Assembly (NCBI GenBank): GCA_964016885.1 | Contig: OZ024740.1 | Location: 370,574,001-370,638,000 of the forward strand | Length of the DNA: 64,000 nucleotides | DNA from: Eledone cirrhosa | Taxonomy: Eukaryota | Direction of reading: 5' to 3' | Shown: one piece after another, positions 4,101 to 64,000 of the stretch | Numbering within the stretch: position 1 is the stretch's first letter | How the letters are laid out: each line of letters begins with the position of its first letter | Notes under the pieces: model-generated | Told to the model about the DNA's origin: nothing | What the model saw: only the letters and a program-made list of their open reading frames with translations | Database searches by the model: none | Translations under genes and position numbers: made by a program

Positions 4101-4270
<170 letters not shown>

Positions 4271-4462
4271 GAAGAGAGAAGAAACATTTAGATATAATTA
4301 GTAATAAAATGTATCATACCTAAACTGTTCCTAGATTCCTCGACTACGTAGTTTCGTGGCATAAACAAAAACAATACATCATAAAGATATAGAGTCCCTG
4401 CGAGGTCTGCCGACTTTTCTCACGTCGTGTAGACGCGTTCTTGAAGCTAGTAAAATGAGGTA

Positions 4463-4552
4463 TCCTCTTGATAAGTCGGCAGACCTCGCAGGGACTCTAT
4501 ATCTTTATGATGTATTGTTTTTGTTTATGCCACGAAACTACGTAGTCGAGGA
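4463..4552 (+). ncRNA. Hammerhead ribozyme, U3:A8 core variant
   Basis: tcctc TTGATAA gtcggca...tgccac GAAA ctacgtag TC gagga. Confidence 0.75.
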
Positions 4553-5055
4553 ATCTAGGAACAGTTTAGGTATGATACATTTTATTACTAATTATATCTA
4601 AATGTTTCTTCTCTCTTCATAATGTATTTGTAACTCTGATACTGGTCCAGTCTAGTTCAACCGGATTGGTCTGTCCCAGTCATTCATTGAGCAACATCGG
4701 TGAGGTTGGCACCATTAACTCACGGTTGGGTGTGGATGCATTCATGTATATGTGTGTGTCCGCATGTATCTGTGTGTTTCTAAATATATTGTTCATAACT
4801 CCCTCTGGTCGAGTAATCTTTGAAGTGTGCTGACTGCTGGAAAGCAGCCATTACTCATACTTCTCGCCTCCTTCACCACCTCTTCTACGGCTTCGATATA
4901 AATACCCCCTCCGCCTCCGTGGTATTTTCTTCGGGGTTATAAGAGGCTTAGCTCTGTTTCTCGACCGTTATATCGCGTGACTATCTCCCCCTCCGCCTTT
5001 TGGGATTCTTTCTCACGTCGTGTAGACGCGTTCTTGAAGCTAGTAAAATGAGGTA

Positions 5056-5145
5056 TCCTCTTGATAAGTCGGCAGACCTCGCAGGGACTCTATATCTTTA
5101 TGATGTATTGTTTTGGTTTATGCCACGAAACTACGTAGTCGAGGA
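5056..5145 (+). ncRNA. Hammerhead ribozyme, U3:A8 core variant (tandem copy)
   Basis: Same motif as 4463-4552, 593 bp downstream. Confidence 0.75.
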
Positions 5146-5376
5146 ATCTAGGAACAGTTTAGGTATGATACATTTTATTACTAATTATATCTAAATTTTT
5201 CTTCTCTCTTCATAATGTATTTTTAACTCTGATACTGGTCCAGTCTAGTTCAACCGGATTGGTCTGTCCCAGTCATTCATTGAGCAACATCGGTGAGGTT
5301 GGCACCATTAACTCACGGTTGGGTGTGGATGCATTCATGTATATGTGTGTGTCCGCATGTATCTGTGTGTTTCTAA

Positions 5377-5486
<110 letters not shown>

Positions 5487-5686
5487 ATTATTTAGGCTTG
5501 TTGGCTCACCACCGGATAGAATTGTTCATTCCGTATGGTCAATCTTGATGCAATATTATGGAAAGTACTGAACGTAGTGCAGTTCACCCGTCTTCGTTTG
5601 TGTAGTTGGTGGTGCGAATACGGAGTTAATTATTGTGAATAAAATAACAGGAGGCTGGACTGGTGTAAATCCTCGAAAAGTTTATT

Positions 5687-5744
5687 ATACTATGATCATT
5701 TCAAAGACCGGGTTCCGTATGAATCTGGTGAAATCATCAGGTAT
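5687..5744 (-). ncRNA. Hammerhead ribozyme
   Basis: Minus: atac CTGATGA tttcaccag...ccggtcttt GAAA tgatca TA gtat. Confidence 0.75.
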
Positions 5745-6283
5745 TCGAAATATAATAAAGGAATATATAAAAATCCATGGGTCCGAAAATCGGTGACAGA
5801 GAGGACGACTGACCAGCTAGCTGTTTTCACCTCGGTCAGTCGCCCTCAAGTTATGGCTATTCGGTCTACTAATTACCATCTGGTGAAGGGGCGAAGGCTT
5901 ATAGTGTACTACCACCTCTCCGTCAGAGAAGAAAAAAAGAGAAGAAAGAAAGAAGAAAAGTCAGCGTAAGGGTCACACTACTGTAAGGCAAGAAAACGCC
6001 GCGAAAAATGTTATTCCAAAGAATCTATATTTTAACAAAGGCATATATAATGGGTGTCTATATGGTCAAATGTGTGAACAGAAAATTGGAACGTTAAGAG
6101 TTAAAGGATGAAATTAAATTAAAAGTTTTAAAAAATTAAGAGTTAGAAGAAATTTTTAAAATAATTAGAAAATTAATAGAAAATTAAAGGTTTGTGTTGC
6201 GGGATTTATTTAATGAAACTACAGAGAGAGTCTTATATGAAAAAGTTTAAGTGTATTATTGGGAATCCCTATAAGTTATCAAG

Positions 6284-6712
6284 GTGGGATATAGAGTAAA
6301 GATTAAAGCCTTCGATTGTAAATCCCAGCCAGCACCTCCTAACCACGTGTCAGCCAGTTTCGAGTGGTATCGTCTAGCGAAAGAAATGGAAATTAATTTT
6401 TCCGAGTACTCTAGGAACATGACTGCCATAGGCTTCGAGTGTGCTGGCGAGAAGTCTACCAGCTTCGACAGGCCATCGACTATACCAAACGAATACTATT
6501 AATTCACACAGGAAGGGTTTATTTACGTGCCAGTGGAGGGGGGCATGATACAGCTAACAGTTATGACTAAGTCCAGAGTTTATAGGTATGAGTATGATAT
6601 GGCGGTCAAAACAGGCGGTGCGGCGGGTCCCGGCGCAAATCCAACCGTTCCGAGTAATTTCATTTACCGAAAGAGGGGAAATTTATTTTTCCAAGCACTC
6701 AAGGAAGGCTGA
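6284..6712 (+). pseudogene. Unknown reading frame of about 140 codons (one internal stop) inside the hammerhead-bounded element
   Basis: ORFs 6284-6502 and 6527-6712 are in the same frame; non-repetitive and higher in GC than flanks; no recognised domain. Confidence 0.3.
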
Positions 6713-7009
6713 ATTTTCCGAGCGCCCGGCGCACAACCGGGAAAACCACCACATCAGTCGAAAGTGGTAAAACCCAATGAAAATAGAGTATAATTATTTT
6801 TAAGTCCCAGTTAATCCGGGTAATAAGTAGTGTGGTTCTTTGGTGGGTAGGGAACTATGAAAGGTGCATAAAGACCTGAGTAAGGAATAATAAGCAGAAA
6901 ATCACAAATAAATAAAAGCAGGATACAAAGATACATTAATAAAGTAAAAAGTAAAATACATAAATTTTGGGATCCATGGATTTTTATATATTCCTTTGTT
7001 ATATTTCGA

Positions 7010-7067
7010 ATAGCTGATGATATCACCGGATTCATACGGAACCCGGTCATTGAAATGATCATAGTAT
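7010..7067 (+). ncRNA. Hammerhead ribozyme (inverted copy of 5687-5744; stem I mismatch)
   Basis: atag CTGATGA tatcaccgg...ccggtcatt GAAA tgatca TA gtat. Confidence 0.65.
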
Positions 7068-7117
7068 AATAAACTTTTCAAGGATTTACACCAGTCCAGC
7101 CTCATGTTATTTTATTC

Positions 7118-7217
<100 letters not shown>

Positions 7218-25156: not shown

Positions 25157-26241
25157 GACACATATATATATATATAATAAAGAGAGACAAACACATATAT
25201 ATATATATATGTATATATACTTAATGAGCTGATATAGATGTCTCTTTGGCTATTGTATCCATATATTTGTCTGGTTACAATATTTATATATCACCTTGCC
25301 TAATATTTCTAACAGGAGAAGGGACTGTACTGAATCTTCGTCATTGTCTTGTCTACTATATTTTCTTTGACGTTGACCTCGTTGTGTAACAAGGGACAAG
25401 CTCCAGACAGGCTAAATTCATGAAAGCTTTCTACTTCGTAATTATTCATAATCAATTGACTTTAAGCTTTTAATGCCCGATCGAAATACATGAAGATAAC
25501 AAAATGCAGTGTCTCTTCTGTATGAATTCGAGCCTTATTTAAAACAAAAAGAAAGAACTATTGTATTTTATTAGTGTTAAGCCTCATTGTAACCCTTTCT
25601 ATGTTTATGTGACCATATCTTTATTGTTAATCTATAAATTCATCATCAAATTGTCATTGTTATTATTGTTTTTTTATTACTATGTCTTATCTTTAGCGTG
25701 AAAATTGGCACTAAATTTGGTTTTAATCTTTTTCATTTCTTCAAAGAGTGCTTCATAAACTTCTCTAACACTTTGAAGTATGTCTCTTTGATCTGGTTCA
25801 AACCTAACTCTGATTGTATTTACTTATTTGAACTTTTTATTGTATAAAACCGTACATTGCAGGAATATGTTGTTAAGAAGTTTTTTCGCAGCAACATAGG
25901 CAAGTGTTTTTTGGCCAATGCCTCGGTTTGACTAAAGATTTGAGAGTGAAATTTCATATACGAAAACTGTGTGCAAATTCTTTCGAGAGGCAAATTTCAA
26001 TTTCTGATGCCGCGTTTACCACGATATGACGGTATGATGGCTCCTCGTTGTTGAATGTAGTAGTTGAGGTTTTTTGCCTCCATTTTATTTACCGGAATAA
26101 ATTTTAAATATAGAATTTTGAGGTCTCCGATTGATTAGAGACGTGCAGATCCTGTTTCAGCACAGCTGGACATGGTTGTGCCAACACTTCTCGGACTGAA
26201 CAAAAAAAAAAATAATAATAATAATAATAATAATAATAATT

Positions 26242-27339
26242 TTGAGTATCACAGTTGAAACTCTTAAGGGGCAGGCCAAAAAACTAACCAACTGGAAATC
26301 ACCAGGCCCAGATGGTGTGCAGGGGTATTGGATTAAAAATATAACATCCCTCCACCCGAAACTGACAACCATGTTCAATGACTGCTTGATGTCAGGTGAG
26401 GTACCAGAGTGGTTGACAAAAGGTACCACAGTTCTGATAATGAAAGACCGAATCAAGGGTAATGATGTTACCAACTATAGACCTATCACATGTCTGTCCG
26501 TAATGTGGAAACTGTTGTACCTTCTTTGAGAAAACTGAATTTAGAGATCCACAGACATGGAACTGGTTGAAAAGAAGAGACCTTAAAAAGGCTACAGAAG
26601 GAATGTTAATGGCTGCGCAGGAGCAGGCCCTCAAAACGAAGTGGTTGAAACACCACATTTACAAGGAGGAGGCTAGCCCACTTTGCAGGATCTGTGGAGA
26701 GAGAGAGGAGACTGTGGCTCACATTGTATCCGAGTGTAAACACCTAGCCCAGACTCACTATAAGGGCTGGAGACATGATGTGATGGGCAGGGTGATCCAC
26801 TGGCACCTATGCAAAGTAAACAATTTACCACATTCTGAGAAGTGGTATGAGCATAATCCAGAGGCGGTGATAGAAAACGATCAGGTGAAGGTGCTGTGGG
26901 ATTTTAGGATACAGACGGACAAGAAACTGGAACACAATAGACCTGACCTGGTGGTTTTGGACAAAGAAAAAAGATCGTGCCTGATTGTGGATGTGGCCTG
27001 CCCATTCGACACGAGAATGCAAGAGAAAGAGAGGGAGAAAATTAACCGATACCAGGACTTAAAGTGGGAGGTAAAAAGGATTTGGAACTGCCATGAAGTC
27101 AAAGTGATCCCGATTGCCATAGGCGCACTAGGGACTATCTCAAAAAGTTTCCAGGGATGGTTAAAGAAAATTGGCCCCTTCACGCTTTTTGGAACGCTTC
27201 GAAAGGCATGCTTGCTGGGAACAGCAAGAACCCTCCGATACGTCCTGAATATCTGAGGCTGCAGGTAGTGGCTTGATATTCATCTCAACAAACTTTCCAG
27301 TTAACTAACATCAATGACTGAGACTCAAAGAGTAATAAC

Positions 27340-27395
<56 letters not shown>
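26242..27395 (+). mobile_element. R4/Dong-type RLE non-LTR element, internally deleted copy in (AAT)n
   Basis: [16 protein letters not shown], joined at about 26516 to CRIC..H..C zinc knuckle, RHD and HNRPD..D.ACP..K RLE; (AAT)n on both sides. Confidence 0.9.
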
Positions 27396-27396
<1 letters not shown>

Positions 27397-27929
27397 GCAC
27401 ATGGTGGATATATATCGTTATGGAATCGCTCCCGTAAGTTTTTGATTTTTACTTCTTTAAAACAACTGTGATAGAATAATTCTTATTACAAATGAAGTAT
27501 AAGATTACAGTTTTCATGCTCAGCACGCCATAACGCATCACTTTACGGCATAGGGTCCCAATATTCAATATTTAATATTTAATTTTGGATCAGAAATGTT
27601 ATAGTCGAAAAAGAGGAAAATAGCAAAATGGCTAAATAGCTAAATGGCTAAGTGGACAGACAGGCAAATAAGTACACCACCAGCACTACCTCCGGCACCA
27701 TCACCACTACCACGCCAAAAACTCTAGTCAAGTTGCCTCAACTTCTATTTCTACTTCAACTTCAACACCATCACTACAGTACTATGATCACATCACCACC
27801 ACCACCACTGCCTCATTATCGCTACCGCCGCTATTCTCTCCCACTACGTCCTGCTAAGTACTACTAGCACAGCACCACCACCACCACCACTGCCTCATTA
27901 TCACTACCACCGCTATTCTCTCCCACTGG

Positions 27930-30900
27930 AACGAGATTGGTCTATTTAAATTAGATGAACAAAAATTGGCCGGGCAGCCTCGGGTAATAAGAACTAATGG
28001 GTGGATAAGCGAGCTAGAACTGGAGGAACTGAGCAGAGAGATTAGATTGGAAATGGAGAGTGGAGTATGCCAGGCAAACGAGCCAGTGGGAAATGAAGGT
28101 GAAGAGGTTGAGAGAACGGAGGAACCATCCGAAGCAGACAATGATCTGAATGCTTAAATAAATAATACCTGGAACAAAGATACGGCCATTGAGGAGATGA
28201 ATGCTGACGGGCTAAGACAAGATTTGGTTGATATCCTAAACTTAGTGGTAGATGAATTGAACAATGATAGTGGGAAACCTATGAACCTAAGATTTGTAGA
28301 CAGGAAAAAGTTAAAAGAAACAACAGCTAAGGTAAACAAAGTCATCCCATACCTTGAGGCGAAGAGCCTTCACCAATGCAACAATATCCTCAGAGCAACA
28401 GCAAATGCGGTGAGGAAATTACTTGGCATAAAAGCGAGAGGAAACAACAAACAAGAAAGATCAGAACCTTGGTGAAAGAAACGACTGAATGGTCAAATCA
28501 GGGAAATGAGAAATGACATTGGAAAGCTTGAGTCCCTACTGAATGGGACACTAAAAAACATAGACACTAAAATAGACTGGAAATAAAGTACAAAACTAGG
28601 AGGAAAAATCTAAATATTTTCATAGAGGAACTGAAGCAACGCATTGTAGCAAAGAGTGCAAAAATTAGGCGATACGAGAGCAGAGTCAGTCAGTATAGAC
28701 AGAACCGCATGTTTGACAACAACCAGAAGATGCTGTTTGGACAGCTTGAAGGGAAAGAGAGAGGCAACGACTTGATCCCTGAGGCGGAACAAACTAAGAC
28801 ATTCTGGAGAGTAATATGGGAGCAGGATGTTAAACATAATGACCAGGCAGTGTGGATTGAGACAGTACAAAAGGAGATTAGTGAACAGGCACACCAACAA
28901 ACAGATTTGAGTATCACAATTGAAACTCTTAAGGGGCAGGCCAAAAAACTAACCAACTGGAAATCACAGGCCCAGGTGGTGTGCAGGGGTATTGAATTAA
29001 AAATATAACATGCCTCCACCCGAAACTGACAACCATGTTCAATGACTGCTTGATGTCAGGTGAGGTACCAGAGTGATGGACAAAAGGTACCACAGTTCTG
29101 GTAATAAAAGACCGAATCAAGGGTAATGATGTTACCAACTATAGACCTATCACATGTCTGTCCGGAATGTGGAAACTGTTGACAAGCATTATGTCTGAGG
29201 AAATCTACCATCACCTCCACACAAACAACTTGTTACCGGACGAACAGAAAGTATGCCGAAAGAAGTCTCGTGGTACAAAGGAACAGTTACTTATTGATAA
29301 GATGGTAATGAGGAATTGCAAGAGGAGACACACTGGTCTTGCCATGGGATGGATAGACTACAAAAAGGCATTTGACACGGTGCCTCATTCTTGGATCACC
29401 AAAAGCCTAGAGATCTTCAAGGTGGCAGATAACATCAGACAGTTGTTGGGCAAAAGTATGAAGTACTGGAAAACAGAGTTAACATCAGCTGGAGAATCCT
29501 TTGGAGGCGTGAAGATCAAGAGAGGTATCTTCCAGGGAGAAGTCTTTCCCCTCTGTTGTTTGTCCTTGACCTTATGCCCCTGACCATTATACTGCGAAAA
29601 GTGAGAGCAGGATACAAGTTGAGAAAGGGAGAGCTTACCATCAATCACCTCCTCTTCATGGACGATCTTAAGCTCTTCGGGAAGAGTTAGGAGTTGGATG
29701 TGCTTGTTGACACTGTCCGTATTTTCAGCAATTATATATGTATGCAATTTGGTATTAGTAAGTGTGGAGTCCTTGTGATGAAGAGGGGTAAATTGAACAG
29801 AATCAACGGAATCCAGGTACCAACAGGTGAGATGATAAAGGAAATTGACTCTGAAGAAGGATACAAGTATTTGGGTGTTCAGTAGGAATGCCATAAGTGC
29901 AGTAAATTCTCGAGCTGTGTCTATTATTAGGTACAGTGCGGGAATTCTGAGATGGAATGTTGCTGAACAAAAAGAAATGGATAGGAAGACTAGGAAGCTA
30001 TTGACTATCTACAACATGTTCCAAAAGAGGAGTCATGTCGATAGACTCTACTTAAGGAGATCTGAAGGTGGAAGAGCTCTTATCAGCATAGAGGACTGTG
30101 TTCAGATGGAGAAAAACAACCTACACAAATACGTGACTGATAGTAAGGAGCCAATGCTCAGAATTGTAGTGAAGGAGAAGACAATAGACCAGGGGATGTC
30201 CAAGGAGGAAATAACAACAAGGAGAAAGAGCAGCCTTCGTGAATAATCCCTTCATAGTACCTTCTTTGAGAAAACGAAATTCAGAGATCCACAGACATGG
30301 AACTGGTTGAAAAGAGGAGACCTTAAAAAGGCTACAGAAGGAATGCTAATGGCTGCGCAAGAGCAGGCCCTCAAAACGAAGTGGTTGAAACACCATATTT
30401 ACAAGGAGGAGGCTAGCCCACTGTGCAGGATCTGTGGAGAGAGAGAGGAGACTGTGGCTCACATTGTATCCGAGTGTAAACACCTAGCCCAGACTCACTA
30501 TAAGGGCTGGAGACATGATGTGATGGGCAGGGTGATCCACTGGCACCTATGCAAAGTAAACAATTTACCACATTCTGAGAAGTGGTACGACCATAAGCCA
30601 GAGTCGGTGATAGAAAACGATCAGGTGAAGGTGCTGTGGGATTTCAGGACACAGACGGACAAGAAACTGGAACACAATAGACCTGACCTGGTGGTTTTGG
30701 ACAAGGGAAAAAGATCGTGCCTGATTGTGGATGTGGCCTGCCCATTCGACACGAGAGTGCAAGAGAAGGAGAGAGAGAAAATTAACCGATACCAGGACTT
30801 AAAGTGGGAGGAAAAAAGGATTTGGAACTGCCATAGGCGCTCTAGGTACTATCTCAAAAGGTTTCCAGGGATGGTTAAAGAAAATTGGCCCCTTCACGCT

Positions 30901-31068
30901 TTTTGGAACGCTTCAAAAGGCATGCTTGCTGGGAACAGCAAGAACCCTCCGATACGTCCTGAATATCTGAGGCTGCAGGTAACGGCTTGATATTCATTTC
31001 AACAAACTTTCCAGTTAAATAACATCAATGACTGAGACTCAAAGAACAATAATAATAATAATAATAAT
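27930..31068 (+). mobile_element. R4/Dong-type RLE non-LTR element, near full-length, mutated
   Basis: [32 protein letters not shown] knuckle, PD..D..K endonuclease; (AAT)n tail; same family as the 26242 copy. Confidence 0.92.
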
Positions 31069-46453: not shown

Positions 46454-46490
<37 letters not shown>

Positions 46491-46502
<12 letters not shown>

Positions 46503-47480
46503 GATCGAGTATCGAAAAATCGGCGCACGAGTTCACGATAAACGAGATTCGACATGAGCGGCAGAGGGCTCAATAATTCAGATGAATCAGAGCTATAACT
46601 ATCGTTAAAATACCGTCACATATAGAACAAGTCTACAATCAACCATACGATATAAAATCGATAAAGGAAGATTCGGGACAAACAGATAAAAAATATCAAT
46701 AAAACAATACGTCAATAATTTAAATGAATGTAAAATCATACCCGGACCCACTAGACAGGTGTTAAATCTAGCTTCATGGGTTTCTGTAAATCCTTAGACT
46801 GTACTCTATCAGCTCACATATAAATATAAAAGCCTACTAGAGCAAGCGGAACGGAGTTTTACTTTCTCAACGAGCTTTTTTCCTGGCGGTAGAGGAGCTA
46901 ACTACCAGTGAAAAACGCACATGGCATTAGACAAGGGAGATAACCCCTATATCCGCGAAAACAATTCGAGTGAATGTGGAAATACACATATCGAATTAGA
47001 GTGCTCAATAGACATGTTAAAATAAAACAAAAGCTATTCATCACTCAATAGAATCGACAAAAAATGAGCAATAAAATTAACTGGTGGATAGCTAAGTCCA
47101 GAGCTAAATATATTAGAAAGATCGAGTATCGAAAAATCGGCGCACGAGTTCACGATAAACGAGATTCGACATGAGCGGCAGAGGGCTCAATAATTCAGAT
47201 GAATCAGAGCTATAACTATCGTTAAAATACCGTCACATATAGAACAAGTCTACAATCAACCATACGATATAAAATCGATAAAGGAAGATTCGGGACAAAC
47301 AGATAAAAAATATCAATAAAACAATACGTCAATAATTTAAATGAATGTAAAATCATACCCGGACCCACTAGACAGGTGTTAAATCTAGCTTCATGGGTTT
47401 CTGTAAATCCTTAGACTGTACTCTATCAGCTCACATATAAATATAAAAGCCTACTAGAGCAAGCGGAACGGAGTTTTACT

Positions 47481-47481
<1 letters not shown>
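46491..47481. mobile_element. Partial tandem element (617 bp unit, about 1.6 copies) between (TA)n tracts
   Basis: 46491-46864 is essentially identical to about 47108-47481. Confidence 0.8.
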
Positions 47482-47571
<90 letters not shown>

Positions 47572-47576
<5 letters not shown>

Positions 47577-48540
47577 TATGTATACGTACATACATATATG
47601 TATACAGACGTACAGTAGTATGTATATATATATATACATACATGCACACATATATATATATACACGTATCGGTTTACCGAACATTTATTATAATGCTCGG
47701 TTTGTTTGTTTGTAAACAGACAAACAGCCCGAATTACGCCGTACAGTGTTTAGGCACCCACGTCACCTTTTTGTTCAACACTGACACAGGAACGATGTAC
47801 TAGTTTCAAGCTTATTAGCTATCGTCAGCATTGTATACCTTCCTGCCAGATGGTTGAACGTCTGAAAGTATATACTTTCCTTATGCATATTAACGGCTGA
47901 GCAGCCTAATTTGCATATCGAGTGAGTTCAGTCGGCCGGGCGCACCGAAAACGATAAATGGAATAGAATGAAACAAAATTTCGTTTCTCACTCTTAGTAC
48001 CAGCACTTACTTAAATGTAAGTATGTATGTATACGTACATACATATATGTATAAAGACGTACAGTAGTATGTATATATATATATGCACACATATATATAT
48101 GCACGTATCGGTTTACCGAACATTTATTATAATGCTCGGTTTGTTTGTTTGTAAACAGACAAACAGCCCGTACAGTGTTTAGGCAACCACGTCACCTTTC
48201 TGTTCAACACTGACACAGGAACGTTGTACTAGTTTCAAGCTTATTAGCTATCGTCAGCATCGTAAGAGTGAGAAATGAAATTTCGTTTGATTCTATTCCA
48301 TTTATCGTTTTCGGTGTGCCCGGCCGATTGAACTCACTCGATATGCAAATTAGGCTGCTCAGCCATTAATATGCATAAGGAAAGTATATGCTTTCAGACG
48401 TTCAACCATCTGGCAGGAAGGTATACGATGCTGACGATAGCTAATAAGCTTGAAACTAGTACATCGTTCCTGTGTCAGTTTTGAACAAAAAGGTGATGTG
48501 GTTGCATACATATATACATACATACTTACATTTAAGGAAG
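47572..48540 (-). mobile_element. Family A hammerhead element: tandem plus inverted copies with three ribozymes
   Basis: Homologous to 820-1725; hammerheads at 47792-47834 (-), 48221-48263 (-) and 48425-48467 (+). Confidence 0.85.
48425..48467 (+). ncRNA. Minimal hammerhead ribozyme
   Basis: acgatg CTGACGA tagct-aata-agctt GAAA ctag TA catcgt. Confidence 0.88.
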
Positions 48541-51518: not shown

Positions 51519-51949
51519 GATGTGTGTGTGTGTGTGTGTGTGTGTCTGTGAGTGTATATATATATTGAAGAATTATTCAACGTGGATATAACTACAGTTT
51601 TTTAATGTAAAATGAAGGATGTGTAAACACATTTTCATATTATTCTTTCTCTTTGAAAAATAAACAAACATAAGAGATTATCTTTACACATTTCAATAAT
51701 CTTTGAAATACATAAATATAACCTCATGTTTCTTCTGATTAGAGAGGAAATAGTAGAAAATTTGTTTATACTTCATTTTTATCACAGCGAGACGTATAAT
51801 TAAAAACCATTAATAATATCTATATTAAATTGATCTCTTAAATATTCTAATATATGCTCTTTTCTGCACATAGATACGAACATACATACATACATACATA
51901 CATACATACATACATACATACATACATACATACATACATACATACATAC

Positions 51950-52563
51950 ATGGTGGCTGCCAACTCGTTTTCGAGTACGGCCACTAATTTATATCCATGT
52001 AGGAGAACCCCTACCAATGCGCTGAACGAGTGTGACTTTTTAGTCCAGCCAGCGACTTGAAAACTCTGGTACAAACACTACACTTGTGACAATTATTGAC
52101 ACATAGTGCTGGGCCCATGGTACCATGTGACGACAAGTGCAGAGAGATCTCCAGATATAAAGCAATGCCTGTGCTGTGAAGCTTTTATAGTGAGCAAAGG
52201 CACTGCACAAAGCCAGTCCCACTCTCTTAACCAAGATGATATTTACCAAAAAGAAGAACAATTCAACATCATTGGATACCATCAGGGTTGCAGGTGTTAT
52301 ATCAGAGTTTTCCTTCTCCTAGAATTCTGCCTTGACAAAGGCTAAGGGGTCATCTCTCCCGGTGATTTTGGATGGCTATTGACTCTTAAGAGCCCCTTTG
52401 CCTTTTGACAGGTTTTGTTTTTAGTCCTTCAGGATGTCCAAAGCCACCCTCCTCACCAAGAAACCTTGGTGGGGTTGCCAGTTTAGTCGCCAACGACCCG
52501 ACCATGAGACAGGTTGTACTGGGATACATGTTACCAATAGCACCAACTGGTGACCTGACACAA
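51950..52563 (-). mobile_element. Bipartite non-autonomous RTE-derived element, full-length (about 610 bp), (ATGT)n tail
   Basis: Structured 5' end, ttctaggagaaggaaaactctga motif, 3' stem-loop gtactcgaaaacgagttggcagccacc; (TACA)n on both sides. Confidence 0.8.
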
Positions 52564-52613
52564 CATACATACATACATACATACATACATACATACATAC
52601 ATACATACATACA

Positions 52614-52645
<32 letters not shown>

Positions 52646-52646
52646 C

Positions 52647-53017
52647 ATGGTGGCTGCCAACTCGTTTTCGAGTACGGCCACTATTTTATATCCATGTAGG
52701 AGAACCCCTACCGATGCGCTGAACGAGTGTGACTTTTTAGTCCAGCCAGCGACTTGAAAACTCTGCTACAAACACTACACCTGTGACAATTATTGTCACA
52801 TAGTGCTGGGCCCATGATACCATGTGACGACAAGTGCAGAGAGATCTCCAGATATAAAGCAATGCCTGTGCCGTAAAGCTTTTATAATGAGCAAGATGAT
52901 ATTTACCAAAAAGAAGAACAAGTCAACATCATTGGATACCATCAGGGTTGCAGGTGTTATATCAGAGTTTTCCGTCTCCTAGAATTCTGCCTTGACAAAA
53001 GCTAAGGGGTCATCTCT
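52647..53017 (-). mobile_element. Same non-autonomous family, 5'-truncated
   Basis: Near-identical to 51950-52357 with a short internal deletion. Confidence 0.85.
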
Positions 53018-53259
53018 CATACATACATACCTACATACCTACCTACATACCTACCTACCTACATACATACATACATACATACATACATACATACATACAT
53101 ACATACATACATACATACATACATACATACATACATACATACATACATACATACATACATACATGATGGCTGCCCCCTCGTTATCGAGTATGGCCATTGC
53201 ACGAGGAGAAAACAAAATAATAATAAATAAATAAAAAATAAAATAAAATAAAAAAAAGA

Positions 53260-53463: not shown

Positions 53464-53516
53464 CACACACATAAACATATCTATACACACACACACACAC
53501 ACACACACGATAGCAA

Positions 53517-54600
53517 CTAACAGCGCTGCGATCGAATGTGACTTTTTAGCCGAGCCAATGATCTAAAATGTCTTGCACAGAGTCGGCAACCAAAACATTC
53601 ACTGGGAATAACCGGCTGTGGTTGGAGTTCGTGTACTTTTGCATGCCGCTTGAGCCCTCTTGCTGATCTACATTCTCTACCACATGTTTGGCAAGCATGA
53701 TGAGTAGCATCTCCAACAGCAGCCTGGTAGTCAACCACTGGTCTTACTTTATGACTGCGAAGATGACTTTCGAGTCCAGCTTTGCTTAGGCAGAGTCTCG
53801 CACAGACGCTGCATGTCAGCACCATAGGAGGACCCTCGCCGTCTGGAAGTGCAACAGCGATGCCCTTCCTCACATCCCGCTTTACTTTCTCATATGCGAT
53901 TCGAGATGCCTCAAAGGCAACTTTTCCCTCATATACAGTCTTTCTCCATTTATTACGATCAGCAGCAATATTTTCCCATGTATCAGCAGAGATGTTAGCG
54001 TCTTTCAAACAGGCTTTCTAGGAATCCTTATACCTCTTTTTTGGTTTATGTGGCGGTCGTTTTCCTTTAACCAACTCTCCATAAAAGAGTTGTTTTGGTA
54101 TTCTAGAATCCTTCATCTTGGCAAGGTGACCACTCCAACAGAGTCGTTTCTTAAGCACAAGAGCTTCTATACTGTCACACATAGAGCTTTCCAAAATCTC
54201 GACATCACTGATGTAGTCCCTCCAGTGAACGCCATGGATCCGTCTGAGACACATCTGATGGAAACGCTCCAATTTCTTAAGGTGGTGTCGATATGTGACC
54301 CAGGTCTCGCAGGCATAAAGAAGACAAGAGAGCACACATGCCTTGTACACCTTTACCTTTGTCCTCCTGCATATGTCTCGCCGACCCCAGAGTCGCCTTT
54401 CTAGCTTTCCGAAAGCATCACTTGCTTTCCTAATCCTAAGTGAGATTTCACTGTCAAGGTTGCTGTATCGATTGACAGTGCTTCCCAGGTAGACAAACTG
54501 ATCAACAACTCCAAGTCGTTTACCATACACATAGATATTTGGTTCAGTGTACTGCTTACCAGGGGCAGGTTGGTACATGACGACGGTTTTCCTGAGACTG
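53517..54600 (-). mobile_element. RTE-clade LINE 3' fragment (RT C-terminus plus three C2H2 zinc fingers)
   Basis: KTVVMYQPAPG, FVYLGS, LLYACETW, FHQMCLRRI, RLCWSGHLAKM..SRIPKQLFYGEL..GKR; CSVC..H..H, CQTC..H..H, CRLC..H; one in-frame stop at 54018-54020. Confidence 0.92.
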
Positions 54601-54693
54601 ACATACATACATACATACATACATACATACATACATACATACATACATACATACATACATACATACATACATACATACATACATACATACATA

Positions 54694-55097
54694 CATGGTG
54701 GCTGCCAACTCGTTTTCGAGTACGGCCACTACTTTATATCCATGTAGGAGAACTCCTACCAATGCGCTGAACGACTGTGACTTTTTAGTCCAGCCGGCGA
54801 CTTGAAAACTCTGGTACAAACACTACACTTGTGACAACTATTGACACATAGTGCTGGGCCCATGGTACCATGTGACGACAAGTGCAGAGAGATCTCCAGA
54901 TATAAAGCAATGCCTGTGTCGTGAAGCTTTTATAGTGAGCAAAGGCACTGCACAAAGCCAGTCCCACTCTCTTAACCAAGATGATATTTACCAAAAAGAA
55001 GAACAAGTCAACATCATTGGATACCATCAGGGTTGCAGGTGTTATATCAGAGTTTTCCTTCTCCTAGAATTCTGCCTTGACAAAGGCTAAGGGGTCA
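54694..55097 (-). mobile_element. Same non-autonomous RTE-derived family, 5'-truncated
   Basis: Near-identical to 51950-52352. Confidence 0.85.
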
Positions 55098-55160
55098 TAC
55101 ATACATACATACATACATACATACATACATACATACATACATACATACATACATACATAC

Positions 55161-58100
55161 AATGGCGACCGTTGTGGTCAGTGTCCGATAATCGGACGTG
55201 TGTAATTACGGCTTACATGAAGGCAACATACCATATATTGGAAAAAGTTGAGCTACATTACGCGGTAAGATTACATACAATAATTCTACATAAGTGTTTG
55301 AACTATAAGTGTGTTGGAAAACACCTATTTATATGAACGATACATACACTTATGATATATGAACGATACATATACTTTAACATATAAATGCAACGTTGTT
55401 ATATTACATTTATAAAGAAATATACAAGTAACGTTTTCGATTCAGAAACAAAAACATAAGTGTTTGAACTGTGAATATGTTGTGAATAAGTTGTAGAACA
55501 CCTATTTATGTGAACATACATAAACTTTAACATATAAATACAGCGTTGTTATATTATATTACCTTCATAAAGGAATATACTAAGTAACGGTTCTTTTTGT
55601 TCTCGATTCAAACGATTCAAGAACAACGTTTAAAACACAGTTGTAGAATTAAAAACTAACTGAAAAGAAATATTACCCAAGCTGTGAATAACTTTAAATT
55701 TGATTCTGACAGAACTTTGTCGAAACTTTTAAAGAAGATCATCGACTATTTTGAAAAATAAATACGAAATATTAGTGAATAGACGAACTCATCATGGCAA
55801 AAAGTACAAGTCTCCTTCGACCAAATCGCAACTACAACCGTTGTATACAATGGAGCTACGAGCTTAAAAAAGTATTATATGAAGCATACAAACAATCTGA
55901 ACCCCAAAAGTTCGGTTTTATGCAAAGGCTAAAAACTTTATGGAACTCCAAACACCCAGAATTAGACTTTTCTCCAAAGCATTTAAATGAACAGGCAAAA
56001 CGTATCATTAGATGTAAATTGATACATCTAACGGAATTGAGTGATACTACAAATACAGCCCTTGTAGACAACCACCCCACCTCCACTGACAGACAAAGAG
56101 AATGGCCAGCTAAATCTAACAGTGAACAGCTCACCAACAATTTTGCTGAAATCCATCCCACTTCCACTGAAGAACAGCGAGAAAGGTCAGCTAACTCTAG
56201 TAGTAATTGTCACCACATCAACAACGAGGCTGAAATTCATGACTCTACTGAACAAACAGAGCACCAAAAACTTGTGGACACCCTACAAGTGATATGGAAC
56301 GATATGTTTCAAGAGATACACAGCATTAATGTCAGTAAAGAACCCACTAATTTGGAATTAGAAGCGGTGAACGAAATAGCTGGCTATTATCTGAAGGCTA
56401 TGATCTAAAGGTGTAGAAACGACATTTGAAACGCTTAATGTTTTGTTATATGTTTCAGCTGTCACATTGCTATCATATAACACACATCTAAAACCACGCA
56501 ATCAAGATACAAACAGAAAGCCTGAACCAGCGGGGATACGAAATTTAAAAACCAAAATTTTGTCCCTGAGACGAAGTATCTCACACATCGCAGTTGTTAT
56601 GAAATGCAACATAGAGAGCAACTTCACACGACACCAGGAAGACCTAAAGAAAAGGTTAGAGAGACGATTTGGAGATACAAAATTTATAACTTTGAACTCC
56701 AAATTACACCAGTTGAAACAACAACTCACAGCTACAACAGAAAGACTAAAATATAAGTCAACAGCACATAAATGACAAGTGCTAAATAGATTGTTTGCCA
56801 GAGATCCTAAATCAGTTTATCGCAGCTTCGGTGGCAAAAGCTCAATCCCTGTAAACGATACCCCTTCAAAAGAACAGGTTGAGAGCTACTGGAGATCTGT
56901 ATGGGAAACGGGTGACGGATTCAACAGACAAGCTAATTGGCTAAAAGAACTGAAACAGGACTACTGCCAACATGTCCAGATAAAACAATATGACATAGAT
57001 GGGTCAATACTGGAAACAGCTCTACAGAAAATGTCGAATAAGAAATCGCCAGGCCCAGACCTCATTACAGGATACTGGTTGAAGAATTTCACTTTCTATC
57101 GGCAAGATCTCATACGGCTGTTTACAGAAACCATTAAGGGCACACAAGAACTGCCCAGATGGTTATCAACTGCCACTACTCTCCTCATTCCCAAAAATAG
57201 CCAAACCACCCTTGCTACAAATTACCGCCCAATAGCCTGCCAAAACATCATGTATAAATTATATACTGGGTGCCTTAACCTGTTCTTACAGGATCACTGT
57301 GCTACCAACAACATCATAACACCTGAGCAAGCTGGTGGAAAGAGGGAGGTGTGGGGTTGCATAGATCACCTACTAACCTACAAAATGATTCAGGAAAAAA
57401 CAACAAAGAATCGCAGAAACATGACTGTGGTGTGGCTGGACTATCAAAAAGCATTTGATAGTGAACCTCATGGGTGGATTGTTAAGGCTTTACAGTTAGC
57501 TAAAGTCCCACAACCATTGGTAGCTGCTGTTGAACGCCTGACCAAGAACTGGTACACCAATTTGATCCTTAGAGATGAGAAGGTGCAAGTTAAGACTGAT
57601 AAGATACATTACCAGAAGGGCATCTTTCAGGGTGATAGCTTGTCAGTGCTACTCTTCGTTCTCTCACTGAATCCACTATCTTACCTACTCAGGAAACAAG
57701 GTGGACAAAGAAGTGGGCCCAGAAGTATCTCCCATCTTTTCTTTGTTGATGACCTGAAGTTGTATGGGCCAAATATCAATGACATGAAGAAACAATTGGA
57801 CTTCATTACACAATTTTCAACCGACATCAAAATGAAATTTGGTGAGTCCAAGTGTGCATATTTGGTAGTAAAACGTGGAAGAGCTGTGCCCTCCTCTAGA
57901 AATCTAGAGATGAACGGCCTGACAATACAACCTCTGCAGTCAGGTGACAACTGCAGATATCTTGGACAGGATGAGAATGTCAGATATGATGGACCCATAA
58001 ATAAGGAGAGAACCAGAACTGAATACCTCAGAAGAGTAAAGAAAATATGGTCATCAGAATTGTCAGCATACAACAAATACATTGCCCACAATACTTATGC

Positions 58101-59352
58101 TGTGCCAATTCTAACGCCAACATTTGGCCTGCTGAACTGGTCATTGCAAGAACTAAGTGAGATGGATGTTAGAACTCGAAAACTTCTCAGTGTTACTGGG
58201 AACTTTAACATCAATGGTGATGTGGATAGGCTATACTTCTCACGCAAGGAAGGTGGCCGGGGTCTAAAATCAATATTAATAACATATGAGACCCGGATAG
58301 TAACACTGAAGCAACACCTTCAACAGAGGAAAAAGGTTGGCAACCATCTTGCCCAGGTTTATGAGCATGAAAAAAAAATATCATTAGAATAGCGACTGAT
58401 CTGGAGGAGAGATATGGAATAAAGCCTGATATAAATCTCTCACCCAGAGAAATCGGAAGATCCTATTCAATGTTCAAACAAGATTAAAAAATTGACCAAT
58501 TTACAGAAAAAGTTGTGCATGGATACTTGAGGCGTAAAACAAAACCATAGAGGGGATAAACCACTCAAAAAGCCTGGCATGGAGTTCCGACAAGTTTATG
58601 ACATCACACCTTGAGGGATATCTCTATGCAATACAGGAACAAGAACTCCCTACCAAATATCTGCTGCACAAAAGAGGAGGGCCAGCAGCTGACAATAAAT
58701 GTAGGCTATGTAAAACAAAGATCGAGGATGTAAGCCACATTGTTGCCAGCTGCGAAAGAATGTCATCTCGCTACTACCTCCCCATGAGACACAATGGGAT
58801 AGCTAGAACCATCTGGAACGTACTTCGGAAAACAAAATTAACAACAAACGAGGAGGAATATATAGAGACAGATGGCACTAAGAAATACTGGTGGAACCTG
58901 AAAATAAAAACTGCCACCAAATTAAAGCACAACCGGCCTGATATTGTTGTTTGGGACCACACATTGAAAACGTGTTCTGTTGTGGAGATCAGCTGCCCAC
59001 TTGATGTAAACGTTGTCAGAAAAATACAGGAGAAGGAGGACATCTACGGACCATTGATGAGGAGTTTACAAATCCAGTATCCAAGATACACCTTTAGCTT
59101 CATACCCATCATTATTGGAGCTATGGATTATATACCAACCCGCTTAGACCAAAGTATGACTGAACTTGGATTTGCAAACAAAAAGCGCAGCTCCCTAATT
59201 CATAGTCTACAAATGGCTGCGATAGCTGGCATCTTCAAAATTTGCAAAACATTCTTGCGATTCAAGGGATGACAATTTCTTTTCTTTTACAACCTTGCCA
59301 CCAGGAAGGTGGCCGGTCAAAAGAATATACTCGAAATTAAGAGAAAGAGATA
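55161..59352 (+). mobile_element. R4/Dong-type RLE non-LTR element, third family, near full-length, flanked by (TACA)n
   Basis: ORF pieces 55794-56408, 56443-56775, 56779-58392 (WLDYQKAFDS, GIFQGDSLS, FFVDDLK) and 58598-59272 (CRLC..H..C, RHN, HNRPD..E.SCP); (TACA)n at 55098-55160 and 59353-59425. Confidence 0.92.
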
Positions 59353-59396
59353 TACATACATACATACATACATACATACATACATACATACATACA

Positions 59397-59427
<31 letters not shown>

Positions 59428-59533
59428 TCTTTATTATGCCTAAATGTTGAGTCTTGTTTCTCTGGAGCTTTACCTGTGTATTCACAGGATTTTCTGACGA
59501 AATTGATTATCCTATGAATTCACTGATGAAACA

Positions 59534-59603
<70 letters not shown>

Positions 59604-59691
59604 ACATGCACACACAGACACACGCAGTCACGTGCACACACAAACAAACACAAATACATACATACATACATACATACATACATACATACAT

Positions 59692-59724
<33 letters not shown>

Positions 59725-59727
59725 TAC

Positions 59728-60320
59728 ATGGTGGCTGCCAACTCGTTTTCGAGTACGGCCACTACTTTATATCCATGTAGGAGAACCCCTACTGATGCGC
59801 TGAACGAGTGTGACTTTTTAGTCCAGCCAGCGACTTGAAAACTCTGGTACAAACACTACACTTGTGACAATTATTGACACATAGTGCTGGGCCCATGGTA
59901 CCATGTGACGACAAGTGCAGAGAGATCTCCAGATATAAAGCAATCCGTGTGCCGTGAAGCTTTTATAATGAGCAAAGGCACTGCACAAAGCCAGTCCCAC
60001 TCTCTTAACCAAGATGATTTTACCAAAAAGAAGAACAAGTCAACATCATTGGATACCATCAGGGTTGCAGGTGTTATATCAGAGTTTTCCTTCTCCTAAA
60101 GTTCTGCCTTGACAAAGGCTAAGGGGTCATCTCTCCCGGTGATTTTGGATGACCATTGACTCTTAAGAGCTCCTTTGCCCTTTGACAGGTTTTGTTTTTA
60201 GTCCTGCAGGATGTCCAAAATCACCCTCCTCACCAAGAAACCTTGGTGGGGTTGCCAGTTTAGTCGCCAACGACCCGACCATGAGACAGGTTATACTGGG
60301 ATACATGTTACCAGTAGCAC
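59728..60320 (-). mobile_element. Bipartite non-autonomous RTE-derived element, near full-length
   Basis: Near-identical to 51950-52545; (TACA)n on both sides. Confidence 0.85.
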
Positions 60321-60422
60321 CATACATACATACATACATACATACATACATACATACATACATACATACATACATACATACATACATACATACATACATA
60401 CATACATACATACATACATACA

Positions 60423-61082
60423 TAGAACCATCTGGAGCGCAATTAGGAAAACAAAATTAAAAACAAATGGAGGAATATGTTGAGATAGATGGCACAAAGG
60501 AATACTGGTGGAACCTGAAAATAAAAACTGGCACCAAATTAAAGCACAACCGGCCTGATATTGGTTTTTGGGACCACACATTGAAAACGTGCTCTGTTGT
60601 AGGAAAAATACAAGAGAACGAGGACGTCTACGAACCATTGATGAGGAGTTTCCAGATCCAGTATCCAAGATACACTTTCAGCTGGCAGTATCGGTAGAGG
60701 GTCGGACGCCATGCTTTGACGTATAGAGTTACGGCCCTTGCCATTCTGAGTTCAAATCCCGCCGAGGTTAACATTGCCTTTCATCCTTACGGGGTCGATA
60801 AAATAAAGTACCAGTAATGCACTGGGTAATTACTGGCCTTGTGCCAATCGTAGAAACAATTATTGGAGCTACAGGTTGTATACCAATCCGCTTGGACCAA
60901 AGTATAACTGAACTTGGATTTGTGGACCAAGAGCGCAGCTCCTTAATTCATATATTACAAATGGCTGCGATAGCTGGCAACTTCAAAATTTGCAAAACAT
61001 TCTTGCTATTCAAGGGATGATAATTTCTTTTCTTTTACAAACTTGCCACCAAAAATGTACTCGAAATTAAGAGAAAGAGAAA
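60423..61082 (+). mobile_element. 5'-truncated 3' fragment of the third RLE family, in (TACA)n
   Basis: Homologous to 58804-59350; ends gagaaagaga followed by (CATA)n. Confidence 0.88.
60683..60862 (+). mobile_element. SINE (main family) inserted into the RLE fragment
   Basis: Same family as 31332-31520. Confidence 0.88.
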
Positions 61083-61164
61083 CATACATACATACATAAG
61101 TACTACATACGTACATCCGTACGTAAGTACATACATACATTCATATATACATACATACATACAG

Positions 61165-64000
61165 TAAGAAACTTGACACCACCTGTACCATCTAAGTCTA
61201 CCTCGAATGCTGGGGAAAACACTATCGATAATAATAATCGAAAAAATTTGACAACACGTGTACCATCCGAGTCTACCTCGACTGTTGTGGAAAATGCTAT
61301 CGATAATGATAAAAATCAAAAGTATAAACAATTGAAAATTTCCCTCAACGAAATCTTCCAGAGAGAAATTAACTCATGTATAAATATCTGTCTTGCTGAA
61401 CGTATTAAAACGACAATGTTTAATAAGAAAAAACAAATAATTGTTTCTACTTTTGGCACAAGGCCAGCAATTATCCCAGTGTATTACTGGTACTTTATTT
61501 TATCGACCCCGTAAGGATGAAAGGCAAAGTTAACCTCGGCGGGATTTGAACTCAGACCATAAAGGGACGTAACTGTGCTGCAAAGCATGGCGTCCGACCC
61601 TCTACCGATACTGCCAATCCACCGCCCTCTGCCAATCCACCGCCCTAAGAAAAAACAAATAATGAAATATTACGTGTTATTGACGAAATAGGGGATGAAT
61701 ATAATATTTACGACGGATAAAAACCTCAACATTTTGGCAAATCAACGCCTGTTTATATGCCCTAGCAACGACGGTGAACCATTATCTTGGTGATAGCAGA
61801 GATATTAACAAGAATAGAACACCACCAAAAATACCATCATATATAATTAAATAGAAAAAAGGATTGCTGACCTACGAAAACACATAGGATATGTGACAAT
61901 GCTCCTTACATGCAAACAAACACACAAAAAACCTCACTTATCACCAACAAAGAGTGAAAAATAAAATAGAGACGATGTTTGGTAACAGTAGAACCAGAAC
62001 TCTCCAATATAAGTGATCACCCTCAAACAAGAATTGAGAGCTGTTAGCGAAAAACGCCGATACCTGAGAGAAAAGTGCTTAATAAAAGATTCAGACGAAA
62101 CCAAACATCAGTCACTGAGGCCCCATCCCAGAAAGACATAGATCCTTTTTGGAGAAAAATATGGGGTGAAAAGAAGAATTTCAACCAAGATGCAGTGTGG
62201 CTAAGAGAAATCCGAAAGAACTATTGCTCCTACACTACAACAAAAAGATACGAAATAAGTGAGAGTACCCTTGAGACTGTGATAGGAAAACTCCAAGATA
62301 AGAAAGCACCAGGAAGAGACATGATTGTCGGCTACTGGTACAAAAAAACTGATATTCTATCGGAGGTATCTTACTGACCTCTACCAACAAGTTCTTAAGG
62401 GGGATACACTTATACCAGAATGGTTGACATTAGCACAAACATTACTGATCCCCAAGAACAAAGACACCCACTTGGCAAAAAACTGCCGACCATTGCATGC
62501 CAGAGCCTGATGTATAAGATGTATACAGCCTGCCTGAACCTATTCCTCCAAGATCACTGTGAAAATAATAACATCATCACAGATGAACAAGCAGCTGGAA
62601 AGAAAGGGGTTTGGGGATGTGCTGAACAACTCCTAATCAACAAAACTGCGATGTCGGAGGTGCGACAACTTAGGAGGAATATGACTACAGTCTGGATGGA
62701 CTACAGGAAAGCTTTCGATTCTGTTCCCCACTCTTGGAGGATAGAGGCCCTCCAACTTGCTAAAGTCCCAGACATTATTGTCAGAGCCATAGAGAGGCTG
62801 TCTTCTTCTTGAGCTACTATCCTAAGGTTACAGACAGAGAGGGAGGACTCTATTTTCACTGATAAAATAAAATATTGCAGGGGTATATTTCAGGGGGACA
62901 GTCTCTCTGTGATATTATTCATCTTGTCATTAAATCCCTTGTCCTTTCTGCTCAAGAAATGTGAGGGATACATCATTGGCTCACAGAAGGGCATAAATAC
63001 GAACCTAACCCATAATTTCTTTGTGGACGATCTGAAACTCTATACCAAGAACATGGATGGGATGAAGAAAAATCTTGACCTGGTTACAATGTTCTCAAAG
63101 GATATAGGAATGGAGTTTGGCCAAGATAAATGCTCATACATGACTGTAAAGCGGAGGAAAACAACAACCCAATCTAGCAACATTGTCATCAATGGCTTAA
63201 CTGTTTCACCGATATCTAATGAGCACTGCTACAGATACCTGAGGATAGATGAGAACATATCCTATAATGGTATCTGTAATAAAGAACGCGTAACCAGGTA
63301 ATACTACACCCGATTAAGAAAGATCTGGTCATTGGAACTCACTGCGCAAAACAAAACAGTGGCTCACAATGTGTTTTCTGTGCCTGTCCTAACACAAACG
63401 TTTGGAATACTCAATTGGACGATAGAGGAAATCCGAGCAGTTGATATTGGAACTCGAAAAATACTGAACAACACCGGAAACTTCCACATCAACAGTGACA
63501 TAGACCGCCTTTACTTGAAACGTAAGCAGGGAGGCAGAGGCCTAACATCAGTCTAGACAACATTTGAATGTCGCATCATATCTCTCCGACAACATCTACG
63601 AACCTCGAAGCGGAGGAGCCCGTTTCTTGAGCAAGTCTATCTCCATGAAACAGATAAGATCATGAGAGTTGGGAAGGAACTGCTCGAGAGATATTCCCTG
63701 TGTGATAATCAAAATCTCACACCCAGGGATGTCGGTCAGCAGTATCGCAGTGAATCCATGGATGAAAAACTGCATGCTTATCAGCAAAAAATCATGCATG
63801 GATATGTTGCCAGGAAGCTCCAGAGTGAGAGTAATATAGATAAGGAAAGTAGTCTATCTTGGACTAACAACCGCTATATTGGCTCCCACTTTGAAGGATA
63901 CGCTTTTGCAATCCAGGAACAGGAGATTAACACGAAATACCTGATTCACAAAAGCGATAGGGATGCAGGCAAAACACCTAGATGTGATAACAAGTGCAGA
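61165..64000 (+). mobile_element. R4/Dong-type RLE element related to the third family, running off the window
   Basis: KKAPGRDMIVGYW, WMDYRKAFDSVPH, GIFQGDSLS, FFVDDLK, DIDRLYL..GGRGL, IQEQEI.TKYL; starts after a TACA-like tract. Confidence 0.9.
61442..61645 (-). mobile_element. SINE with an 18 bp TSD and duplicated 5' tip
   Basis: TSD taagaaaaaacaaataat at 61424-61441 and 61646-61663; gccaatccaccgccct present twice. Confidence 0.92.

Follow-up and report, generated by a model that had tools for sequence, protein, structure and literature searches.

Dong elements (Bombyx Dong, DongAg, DongBg and the ostracod Dong) carry one open reading frame (ORF) only, with a central reverse transcriptase (RT) and a C-terminal CCHC knuckle and restriction-like endonuclease (RLE), lack an N-terminal zinc finger and insert strand-specifically into microsatellites. 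Their target is (TAA)n (PMC3812793), stated for 'most' insects, molluscs and cnidarians in section 3.3 of PMC7998251, which gives Dong an RLE; PMC3812793 places Dong among the elements of the apurinic/apyrimidinic endonuclease (APE) type. Octopus vulgaris harbours Dong-R4 families that are both abundant and young (PMC13282606), and the consulted portions of PMC13282606, PMC9115989 and PMC10294476 report the octopus families without targets. Here we describe a 64,000-nt window of the 3.0-Gb Eledone cirrhosa genome (contig OZ024740.1, positions 370,574,001 to 370,638,000; coordinates below are positions in this window), in which two RLE-type, Dong-like families, A and B, share the organization and insertion habit of Dong and differ from it in their target, (TACA)n here and (CTTA)n in relatives, and in belonging to a distinct long-stemmed subclade (support 100/99). 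In the RT tree they are nested among or next to AAT-flanked relatives. A and B show the site-specific microsatellite insertion of R4/Dong elements and not the (TAA)n target of Dong in the narrow sense. We consider it highly probable that A and B sit in (TACA)n, in one orientation and with one 3' phase, through the likely action of their own RT-RLE protein, and that derivatives of RTE elements found in the same tracts would enter these independently from the other strand.

The closest precedent for the target is Waldo (WaldoAg1/2, WaldoFs1), which resembles A and B in inserting into ACAY tetranucleotide repeats, essentially the same target (PMC3812793). However, Waldo is described there as an APE-type insect element, with an R1-clade placement taken from a cited title, and since A and B carry an RLE, the common target would be convergent. 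The proposal of the initial annotation that a tetranucleotide target had not been described is too broad with regard to Waldo; for R4/Dong, none was found in the literature searched, Repbase and paper supplements lying outside that search.

Repeats at the ends of families A and B

To be scored as flanked, a copy needed a perfect 8-nt repeat run at most 45 nt upstream of its aligned 5' end or at most about 20 nt downstream of its 3' end. The background was taken from forty evenly placed 10-kb stretches, where 2.1% of 113,280 random positions satisfied the TACA 5' flank test. An unbiased sample of family A was made up of 65 of the first 66 exact 3' ends on contig C1, of which 64 were scored, one being without an alignable body. 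TACA was present upstream of 58/64 and downstream of 57/64 copies, and on either side of 63/64. All nine full-length copies and 49 of the 55 truncated ones (52 breakpoints) had TACA upstream. As the RNA of a truncated copy cannot carry the 5' repeat, the tract predates the insertion, and the proportion of 49/55 against a background of 2.1% indicates that TACA is a target and not a tail. An element-encoded tail with random 5' flanks, the outcome that the initial annotation had set against its own proposal, is thus ruled out by the upstream TACA of the truncated copies.

Copies picked by similarity gave the same picture, with TACA at 70/75 3' ends, 41/46 truncated 5' ends and 34/34 full-length 5' ends of family A, and at 46/49 3' ends and 23/24 truncated 5' ends of family B, while AAT was found at none of these 3' ends (0/75 and 0/49). 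In a separate set of B copies TACA lay upstream of 23/24 full-length and 4/6 truncated copies. Contigs of runs X1, X2 and X7 matched to the element ends showed a few loose ends with TACA; as their organisms are coded, they were not taken as independent support. Conversely, family C, a Dong family of the same genome that served as control, had AAT at 36/40 3' ends and 15/21 truncated 5' ends, and TACA at none. Genome-wide, 4,607 exact A 3' ends were found, 3,077 of them followed by CATACA, and an exact pattern search identified no A end followed by the antisense repeat (0/4,607). Similarly, 4,116 of the 5,274 exact B 3' ends were directly followed by ACATACA. A census of tracts in a random 400 kb counted 283 AT, 83 AC, 23 TACA and 18 AAT, so that (AT)n tracts are 12-fold commoner than TACA, yet they are avoided by family A, for which (TA)5 following the end gave 25 matches, some of them overlapping, against the 4,607 ends. 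The tetranucleotide, strand-specific targeting proposed for this R4/Dong-type lineage is thereby borne out.

In a few A and B copies (L004, L238, L260, L414) the upstream repeat was (AGAC)n or (AC)n and the downstream one ACAT, which places these insertions at borders of compound tracts. A 124-nt fragment of the family A 3' end begins at the same base in L034 and L080 with AT/ATGT flanks, occurring on both strands in L080, and was probably captured by an inverted-repeat element sitting in AT repeats; the two fragments were counted in the similarity-picked tallies and excluded from the analysis of junctions and tract lengths. Upstream tracts appeared longer than downstream ones among the similarity-picked copies (medians 58 vs 21, P=0.005, n=89), but not in the unbiased sample (45 vs 37.5, P=0.35, n=64), and the difference was dropped. 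In family C, two copies (L197 and L198) had (GAA)n upstream and the usual GTAATAACAATAAT end, which suggests that the tail of this family is encoded and imperfect and that trinucleotide tracts rich in purines are tolerated by it.

Strand and phase had been singled out for examination by the initial annotation; the strand proved fixed, and the phase was uniform at the 3' side only. Family A terminates in GAGA(T/A)A and family B in GAAGA, each followed by ACAT in constant phase, and hardly any variation is seen in the first 8-9 downstream bases; the last A at the 3' junction can be assigned to either the element or the repeat. From the fixed 3' phase, the nick that primes reverse transcription would lie at or beside a T^A step of the ATGT strand. 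In contrast, truncated A 5' junctions had no fixed phase (n=33), 12 overlapping by 1-4 nt, 5 being blunt and 16 containing extra bases. The bases preceding the start of full-length A copies track subfamilies in a tree of 31 copies, with ATAAA in 10/11 copies of one clade and ACAT in 6/8 of another, indicating that a few upstream bases travel with the element and suggesting that the A transcript may begin at or in the upstream repeat. The 5' UTR of family A contains an internal duplication of roughly 200 nt (55161-55630 in the window; also L038, L066, L068-L072 and L075), and one subfamily has a single 5' UTR unit and also a common ATATATAAA or ATAAA junction.

Bombyx Dong has a 5' ribozyme resembling that of hepatitis delta virus (HDV; PMC3774820), and none was found in family A in tests made without a positive control: the 12 weak Rfam rows obtained in 4 loci included no ribozyme family, and a ribozyme descriptor matched 0/6 stretches, three of which are family C pieces that perhaps lack the true 5' end.

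RTE derivatives sharing the tracts

The RLE copies of the window and the RTE derivatives D and E are arranged along the following features, given with strand where this applies.

26211-31068, plus: control family C, (AAT)n-flanked; one copy is truncated and has AAT at either side, the other is longer
51880-53204, minus: upstream stack of RTE derivatives, two D copies and one E fragment separated by (ACAT)n; holds no RLE copy
54601-54696: (ACAT)24 tract adjoining the 3' end of an RTE derivative; holds no RLE copy
54697-55098, minus: D copy (RTE-derived, non-autonomous), 5'-truncated, 402/609 nt, its 3' part encoding a remnant of the RTE C-terminal C2H2 finger
55096-55159: (ACAT)16 tract, upstream target half of copy A1, touching the 5' side of D
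55161-59352, plus: copy A1, family A, R4/Dong-type, full length, ORF broken
59352-59423: (ACAT)18 tract, downstream target half of A1, followed by unique DNA
59535-59729: compound tract (AC)34 + (ACAT)14, adjoining the next D copy at its 3' end
59730-60322, minus: D copy (RTE derivative), near full length (594/609 nt)
60321-60424: (ACAT)26 tract, upstream target of copy A2, touching the head of D
60423-61082, plus: copy A2, older, 5'-truncated, related to family A (80-90% identical), interrupted by a SINE-like repeat
60683-60864: SINE-like interspersed repeat inside A2; a second copy lies in the opposite direction within B at about 61436-61616
61082-61164: degenerate (TACA)n tract from the 3' end of A2 to the truncated 5' end of B
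61165-64000, plus: family B copy, R4/Dong-type, 5'-truncated by about 635 nt, ORF broken

As the initial annotation had described, A1 and A2 are bounded by (TACA)n on both sides, namely (ACAT)16/(ACAT)18 and (ACAT)26/(ACAT)4, the last of these at 61082-61097, and the relative at 61165, here recognized as a separate family, begins after a degenerate TACA tract; all three copies lie on the plus strand. A1 is composed of a 5' UTR, a three-helix N-terminal domain, RT, CCHC knuckle, RLE and a short 3' UTR ending in ...AAGAGAAAGAGATA, its ORF being broken into four pieces in three frames. The B copy runs about 820 nt beyond the window and terminates in ...CCAGAAGA, followed by ACATACATACAT. The other Dong-type copies of the window end in (AAT)n, at 23578, 27340, 31048 and 37509, as had also been stated, and the truncated copy at 26241 starts after (AAT)10. 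As to the description of the same tracts as tails or flanks of RTE derivatives, none of the three RLE copies lies in an RTE tail: RTE derivatives touch the tracts at 55096 and 60321 with their 5' side (head or truncated), the tract at 59352 continues into unique DNA, and that at 61082 has an RLE copy on either side. In addition, many MITE-like elements with direct or inverted repeats occur between long (TA)n tracts (800-1850, 4260-5490, 5636-7118 and 46488-48505).

The minus-strand RTE derivatives of this region lie at 51952-52560, 52649-53018, 53165-53204, 54697-55098 and 59730-60322. D is 609 nt long, and its C2H2 region matched an RTE piece of the window (E 1e-6) and L037 (E 8e-5) by tblastx; as judged by sequence similarity, the 3' part of D derives from the end of an RTE ORF. 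At 53490-54600 on the minus strand lies the 3' end of a truncated RTE, which contains several C2H2 zinc fingers as in RTE-2_OV and is related to the 3' part of D. The RTE-derived families number at least five (D-H); they have a 5' UTR and a 3' end like ...GCAGCCA(C/T)C in common and differ in their interiors (L212, L215, L023; 48721-49246 in the window).

The opposed orientation of the two kinds of element, claimed from the window, was found to be general. RTE neighbours of A and B were antisense in 58/58 cases and those of A in the unbiased sample in 43/43, and genome-wide 9,224 exact D/E ends met (ATGT)3, compared to 3 in the other polarity. However, the repeat is confined neither to the 3' end of these elements nor to ATGT. 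D/E ends met (AT)6 in 7,072 exact cases, and exact D heads were found 1,842 times beside (ATGT)3 and 939 times beside (AT)6, which corresponds to a 2-fold excess of ATGT over AT at D heads and a 1.3-fold excess at tails, the tail pattern also counting family E. Moreover, the repeat type of the RTE 3' flank correlated with that of the local 5' flank (rho 0.60, n=30; rho 0.72, n=17, the latter omitting 13/30 rows whose 5' flank could not be scored, in most cases owing to an internal deletion of the reference). The repeat at D heads, the use of (AT)n and the tracking of the 5' flank by the 3' flank together indicate that the RTE derivatives insert into existing tracts, and a fixed, element-made microsatellite tail is not a trait of D or E. 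Microsatellite-tailed RTEs, such as the lepidopteran ones and octopus RTE-2_OV (PMC9115989), resemble D in having a 3' repeat and a C2H2 finger remnant, but D has it at either side and of the same type as the surrounding tract, as would result if D inserted with fixed polarity into (ATGT)n/(AT)n already present. Combined with the census, the end counts suggest that RTE derivatives would prefer ATGT over AT by a rough 16- to 24-fold per tract.

Protein and relatives of the TACA families

Intact family A ORFs of about 1,170 codons are present in L095 and L097 (1,170 aa in L097), with RT, CCHC knuckle and RLE following one another in a single ORF and no APE domain. Pfam RVT_1 and zf-RVT match A1, and the CCHC and RLE motifs C981-x2-C-x8-H-x4-C, RHD1010, RPD1059 and E1076 (E..K) are present. 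The predicted structure (pLDDT 88) found its best fold matches among R2 proteins (9nl3, E 1e-35; 9dou, 9nl2 and 8gh6). R2, an RLE element specific for 28S rDNA and the model for target-primed reverse transcription (TPRT), is nevertheless only 17-19% identical to family A and differs from it in its rDNA target and in its N-terminal zinc fingers, of which the family A protein has none. A conserved three-helix N-terminal domain (residues 22-74) is common to the AAT families as well; the R4/Dong clade is characterized by a divergent N-terminal domain of Myb/SANT type, and no Myb was among the listed fold matches of the three-helix domain (best Z 5.8), obtained with a weak single-sequence model (pLDDT 67). 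The closest named protein relative, from Argonauta hians, is 65% identical in the RT region, and A and B are 47% identical to each other at the amino acid level over that region.

Among 80 metagenome relatives an (AAT)4+ run was found near the protein match in 35, and TACA in none of those listed. The closest of them, L291, has an intact frame of 1,153 codons with (CTTA)n on both sides (L291 1-4871) and shares an N-terminal WTYELN motif with family A, and L294 ends in (CTTA)n (4650-4694); the hosts of L291 and L294 may be one species. In the genome analyzed here (CTTA)7+ is rare (608 overlapping matches). RT trees were built with FastTree from 195 rows, after exclusion of 17 rows with short RT cover, and with IQ-TREE from 54 of these 195. 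A clade of 29 rows (support 100/99) holds A, B, L291, L294 and 24 rows without a known flank, including all 5 tetranucleotide-flanked rows (TACA, CTTA) and 0/15 AAT rows, and the octopus families C and C2 fall outside it. Within this subclade L291 is the closest relative of B (83/95), and Argonauta that of A (100/99). A distant outgroup roots the clade inside the AAT radiation, although this root is weak and the tree is without named reference elements (Dong, R4, Rex6, Hero and NeSL are absent), so that it contains no other RLE clades. Against RTE and other outgroups, A and B group with AAT-flanked elements and a Pediculus RT; the legend of Fig. 6 in PMC7998251 lists Pediculus species among R4/Dong, with an accession not matched to the RT in our tree.

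Approximately unbiased (AU) tests rejected both a single origin of TACA targeting in a clade of A, Argonauta and B (p=0.006) and a clade of L291, L294 and L318 (p=0.0002); the groups were defined after viewing a tree, and the tests used quick trees of 24 rows. A search for further subclade members yielded seven genome-contig loci and one viral-contig locus, 23-30% identical, with a tetranucleotide flank in 0/2 scanned. Two further elements deserve mention: L398 2399-6370, from a viral-collection record, is Dong-like and has (AAT)n at either side, and L310, a relative placed in the AAT clade, has poly(A) plus (AT)11 at its end and not (AAT)n.

Proposed mechanism and competing explanations

In line with the general TPRT model, the RT-RLE protein of A and B would likely recognize the ACAT repeat, with sequence-specific binding probably occurring through the N-terminal three-helix domain. 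It would cut the ATGT strand within 5'-ATGT^ATGT, at the T^A step or adjacent to it, with an uncertainty of one base, and the nicked ATGT strand would prime reverse transcription, after which the 5' side may be joined through short homology or end-joining. The transcript would start at or just inside the upstream repeat, because the final bases in front of the 5' end are passed on within subfamilies. Every insertion makes two usable tracts from one, and with RTE-derived elements likely entering (TACA)n independently from the opposite strand, such splitting could build arrays of RLE elements on one strand and RTE elements on the other, in which neither family need make the target of the other.

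Several observations weigh against this account. The evidence is genomic throughout and includes no empty (pre-insertion) allele, one third of the A ends fail strict CATACA (in the sample mostly because of decayed or mixed AT/AC repeats), and the unbiased sample includes at least three duplicate pairs (L426/L427, L429/L431 and L430/L432). For CTTA, the support consists of two metagenome contigs, one of which shows a 3' end only, and flanks are known for 5/29 rows of the subclade. Furthermore, an RTE neighbour is present at 37/64 A sites, compared to 3/42 random TACA tracts and 1/6 long random tracts, and ATGT starts the 3' flank in 3/9 D copies with an AT-rich, ATGT-free 5' flank. The last two observations would also be expected if RTE-derived elements synthesized (ATGT)n tails that were the main source of RLE targets, and RTE elements of other animals do generate 3' microsatellites (PMC2887409; PMC9115989). 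We nonetheless regard this source as improbable, since RTE heads upstream of A (27/64) outnumber tails downstream (16/64), 27/64 sites have no RTE neighbour at all, and tails are not richer in ATGT than heads (9,224 to 7,072 vs 1,842 to 939). Of the random TACA tracts, only 1/42 led into the 3' end of an RTE element, and exact RTE tails account for about 3% of tracts (9,224 of some 315,000, a total scaled up from 42 per 400 kb). Thus, nesting in RTE-made tails, put forward by the initial annotation as a feedback driving the array, did not hold up as the main process. The symmetric or head-biased RTE pattern fits better with tract splitting and a shared preference than with tail-making, and the RTE derivatives are mostly co-targeters of (TACA)n. 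Still, the excess of RTE neighbours at A sites is not obviously given by simple independent targeting, so co-clustering is not fully explained, and some local positive feedback between RTE derivatives and A is likely.

It is also conceivable, though slightly less probable again than tail-making, that no nuclease specificity is involved, either because an encoded or read-through ACAU tail of the RNA anneals at pre-existing repeat breaks or because purifying selection spares copies in harmless microsatellites. Microsatellites are abundant and fragile in this genome, the near-invariance of the first 8-9 downstream bases means that these are possibly RNA-encoded, and RNA-DNA pairing could fix strand and phase. 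On the other hand, selection cannot yield a single strand (0/4,607), a single phase or the avoidance of the far commoner (AT)n, the RLE motifs are intact, and within one genome a clean separation by repeat type is seen among families A, B and C. RNA-DNA annealing may contribute to priming beside cleavage, but targeting of (TACA)n by the RT-RLE protein itself remains the explanation that we prefer.

In summary, the strand- and phase-specific target is real and new for R4/Dong-type elements, being common to two families that diverged long ago and belonging to a broader subclade with tetranucleotide targets. More tentatively, and with somewhat less than even confidence, we propose that an old, widespread and so far unrecognized branch of R4/Dong left TAA for tetranucleotides of the form TAC-W and changed over between (TACA)n and (CTTA)n on more than one occasion, and that in octopods RTEs entering from the opposite strand only share the tracts, both jointly regenerating and multiplying them into self-amplifying two-strand arrays. 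Work is under way to engineer RLE retrotransposons for the insertion of genes, and PMC13586686 presents how target specificity changes as an open question. Close relatives choosing TAA, TACA or CTTA make up a minimal natural series for this question, with simple substrates, intact ORFs and thousands of junctions, and domain swaps between them could reveal which part of the protein sets the repeat unit and the strand. TACA targeting accounts for about 10,000 insertions (~5,000 3' ends per family) and for the arrays of mixed repeats seen in this octopus-type genome, and it brings with it the caution that the microsatellite 'tails' of RTE-type elements can be targets.

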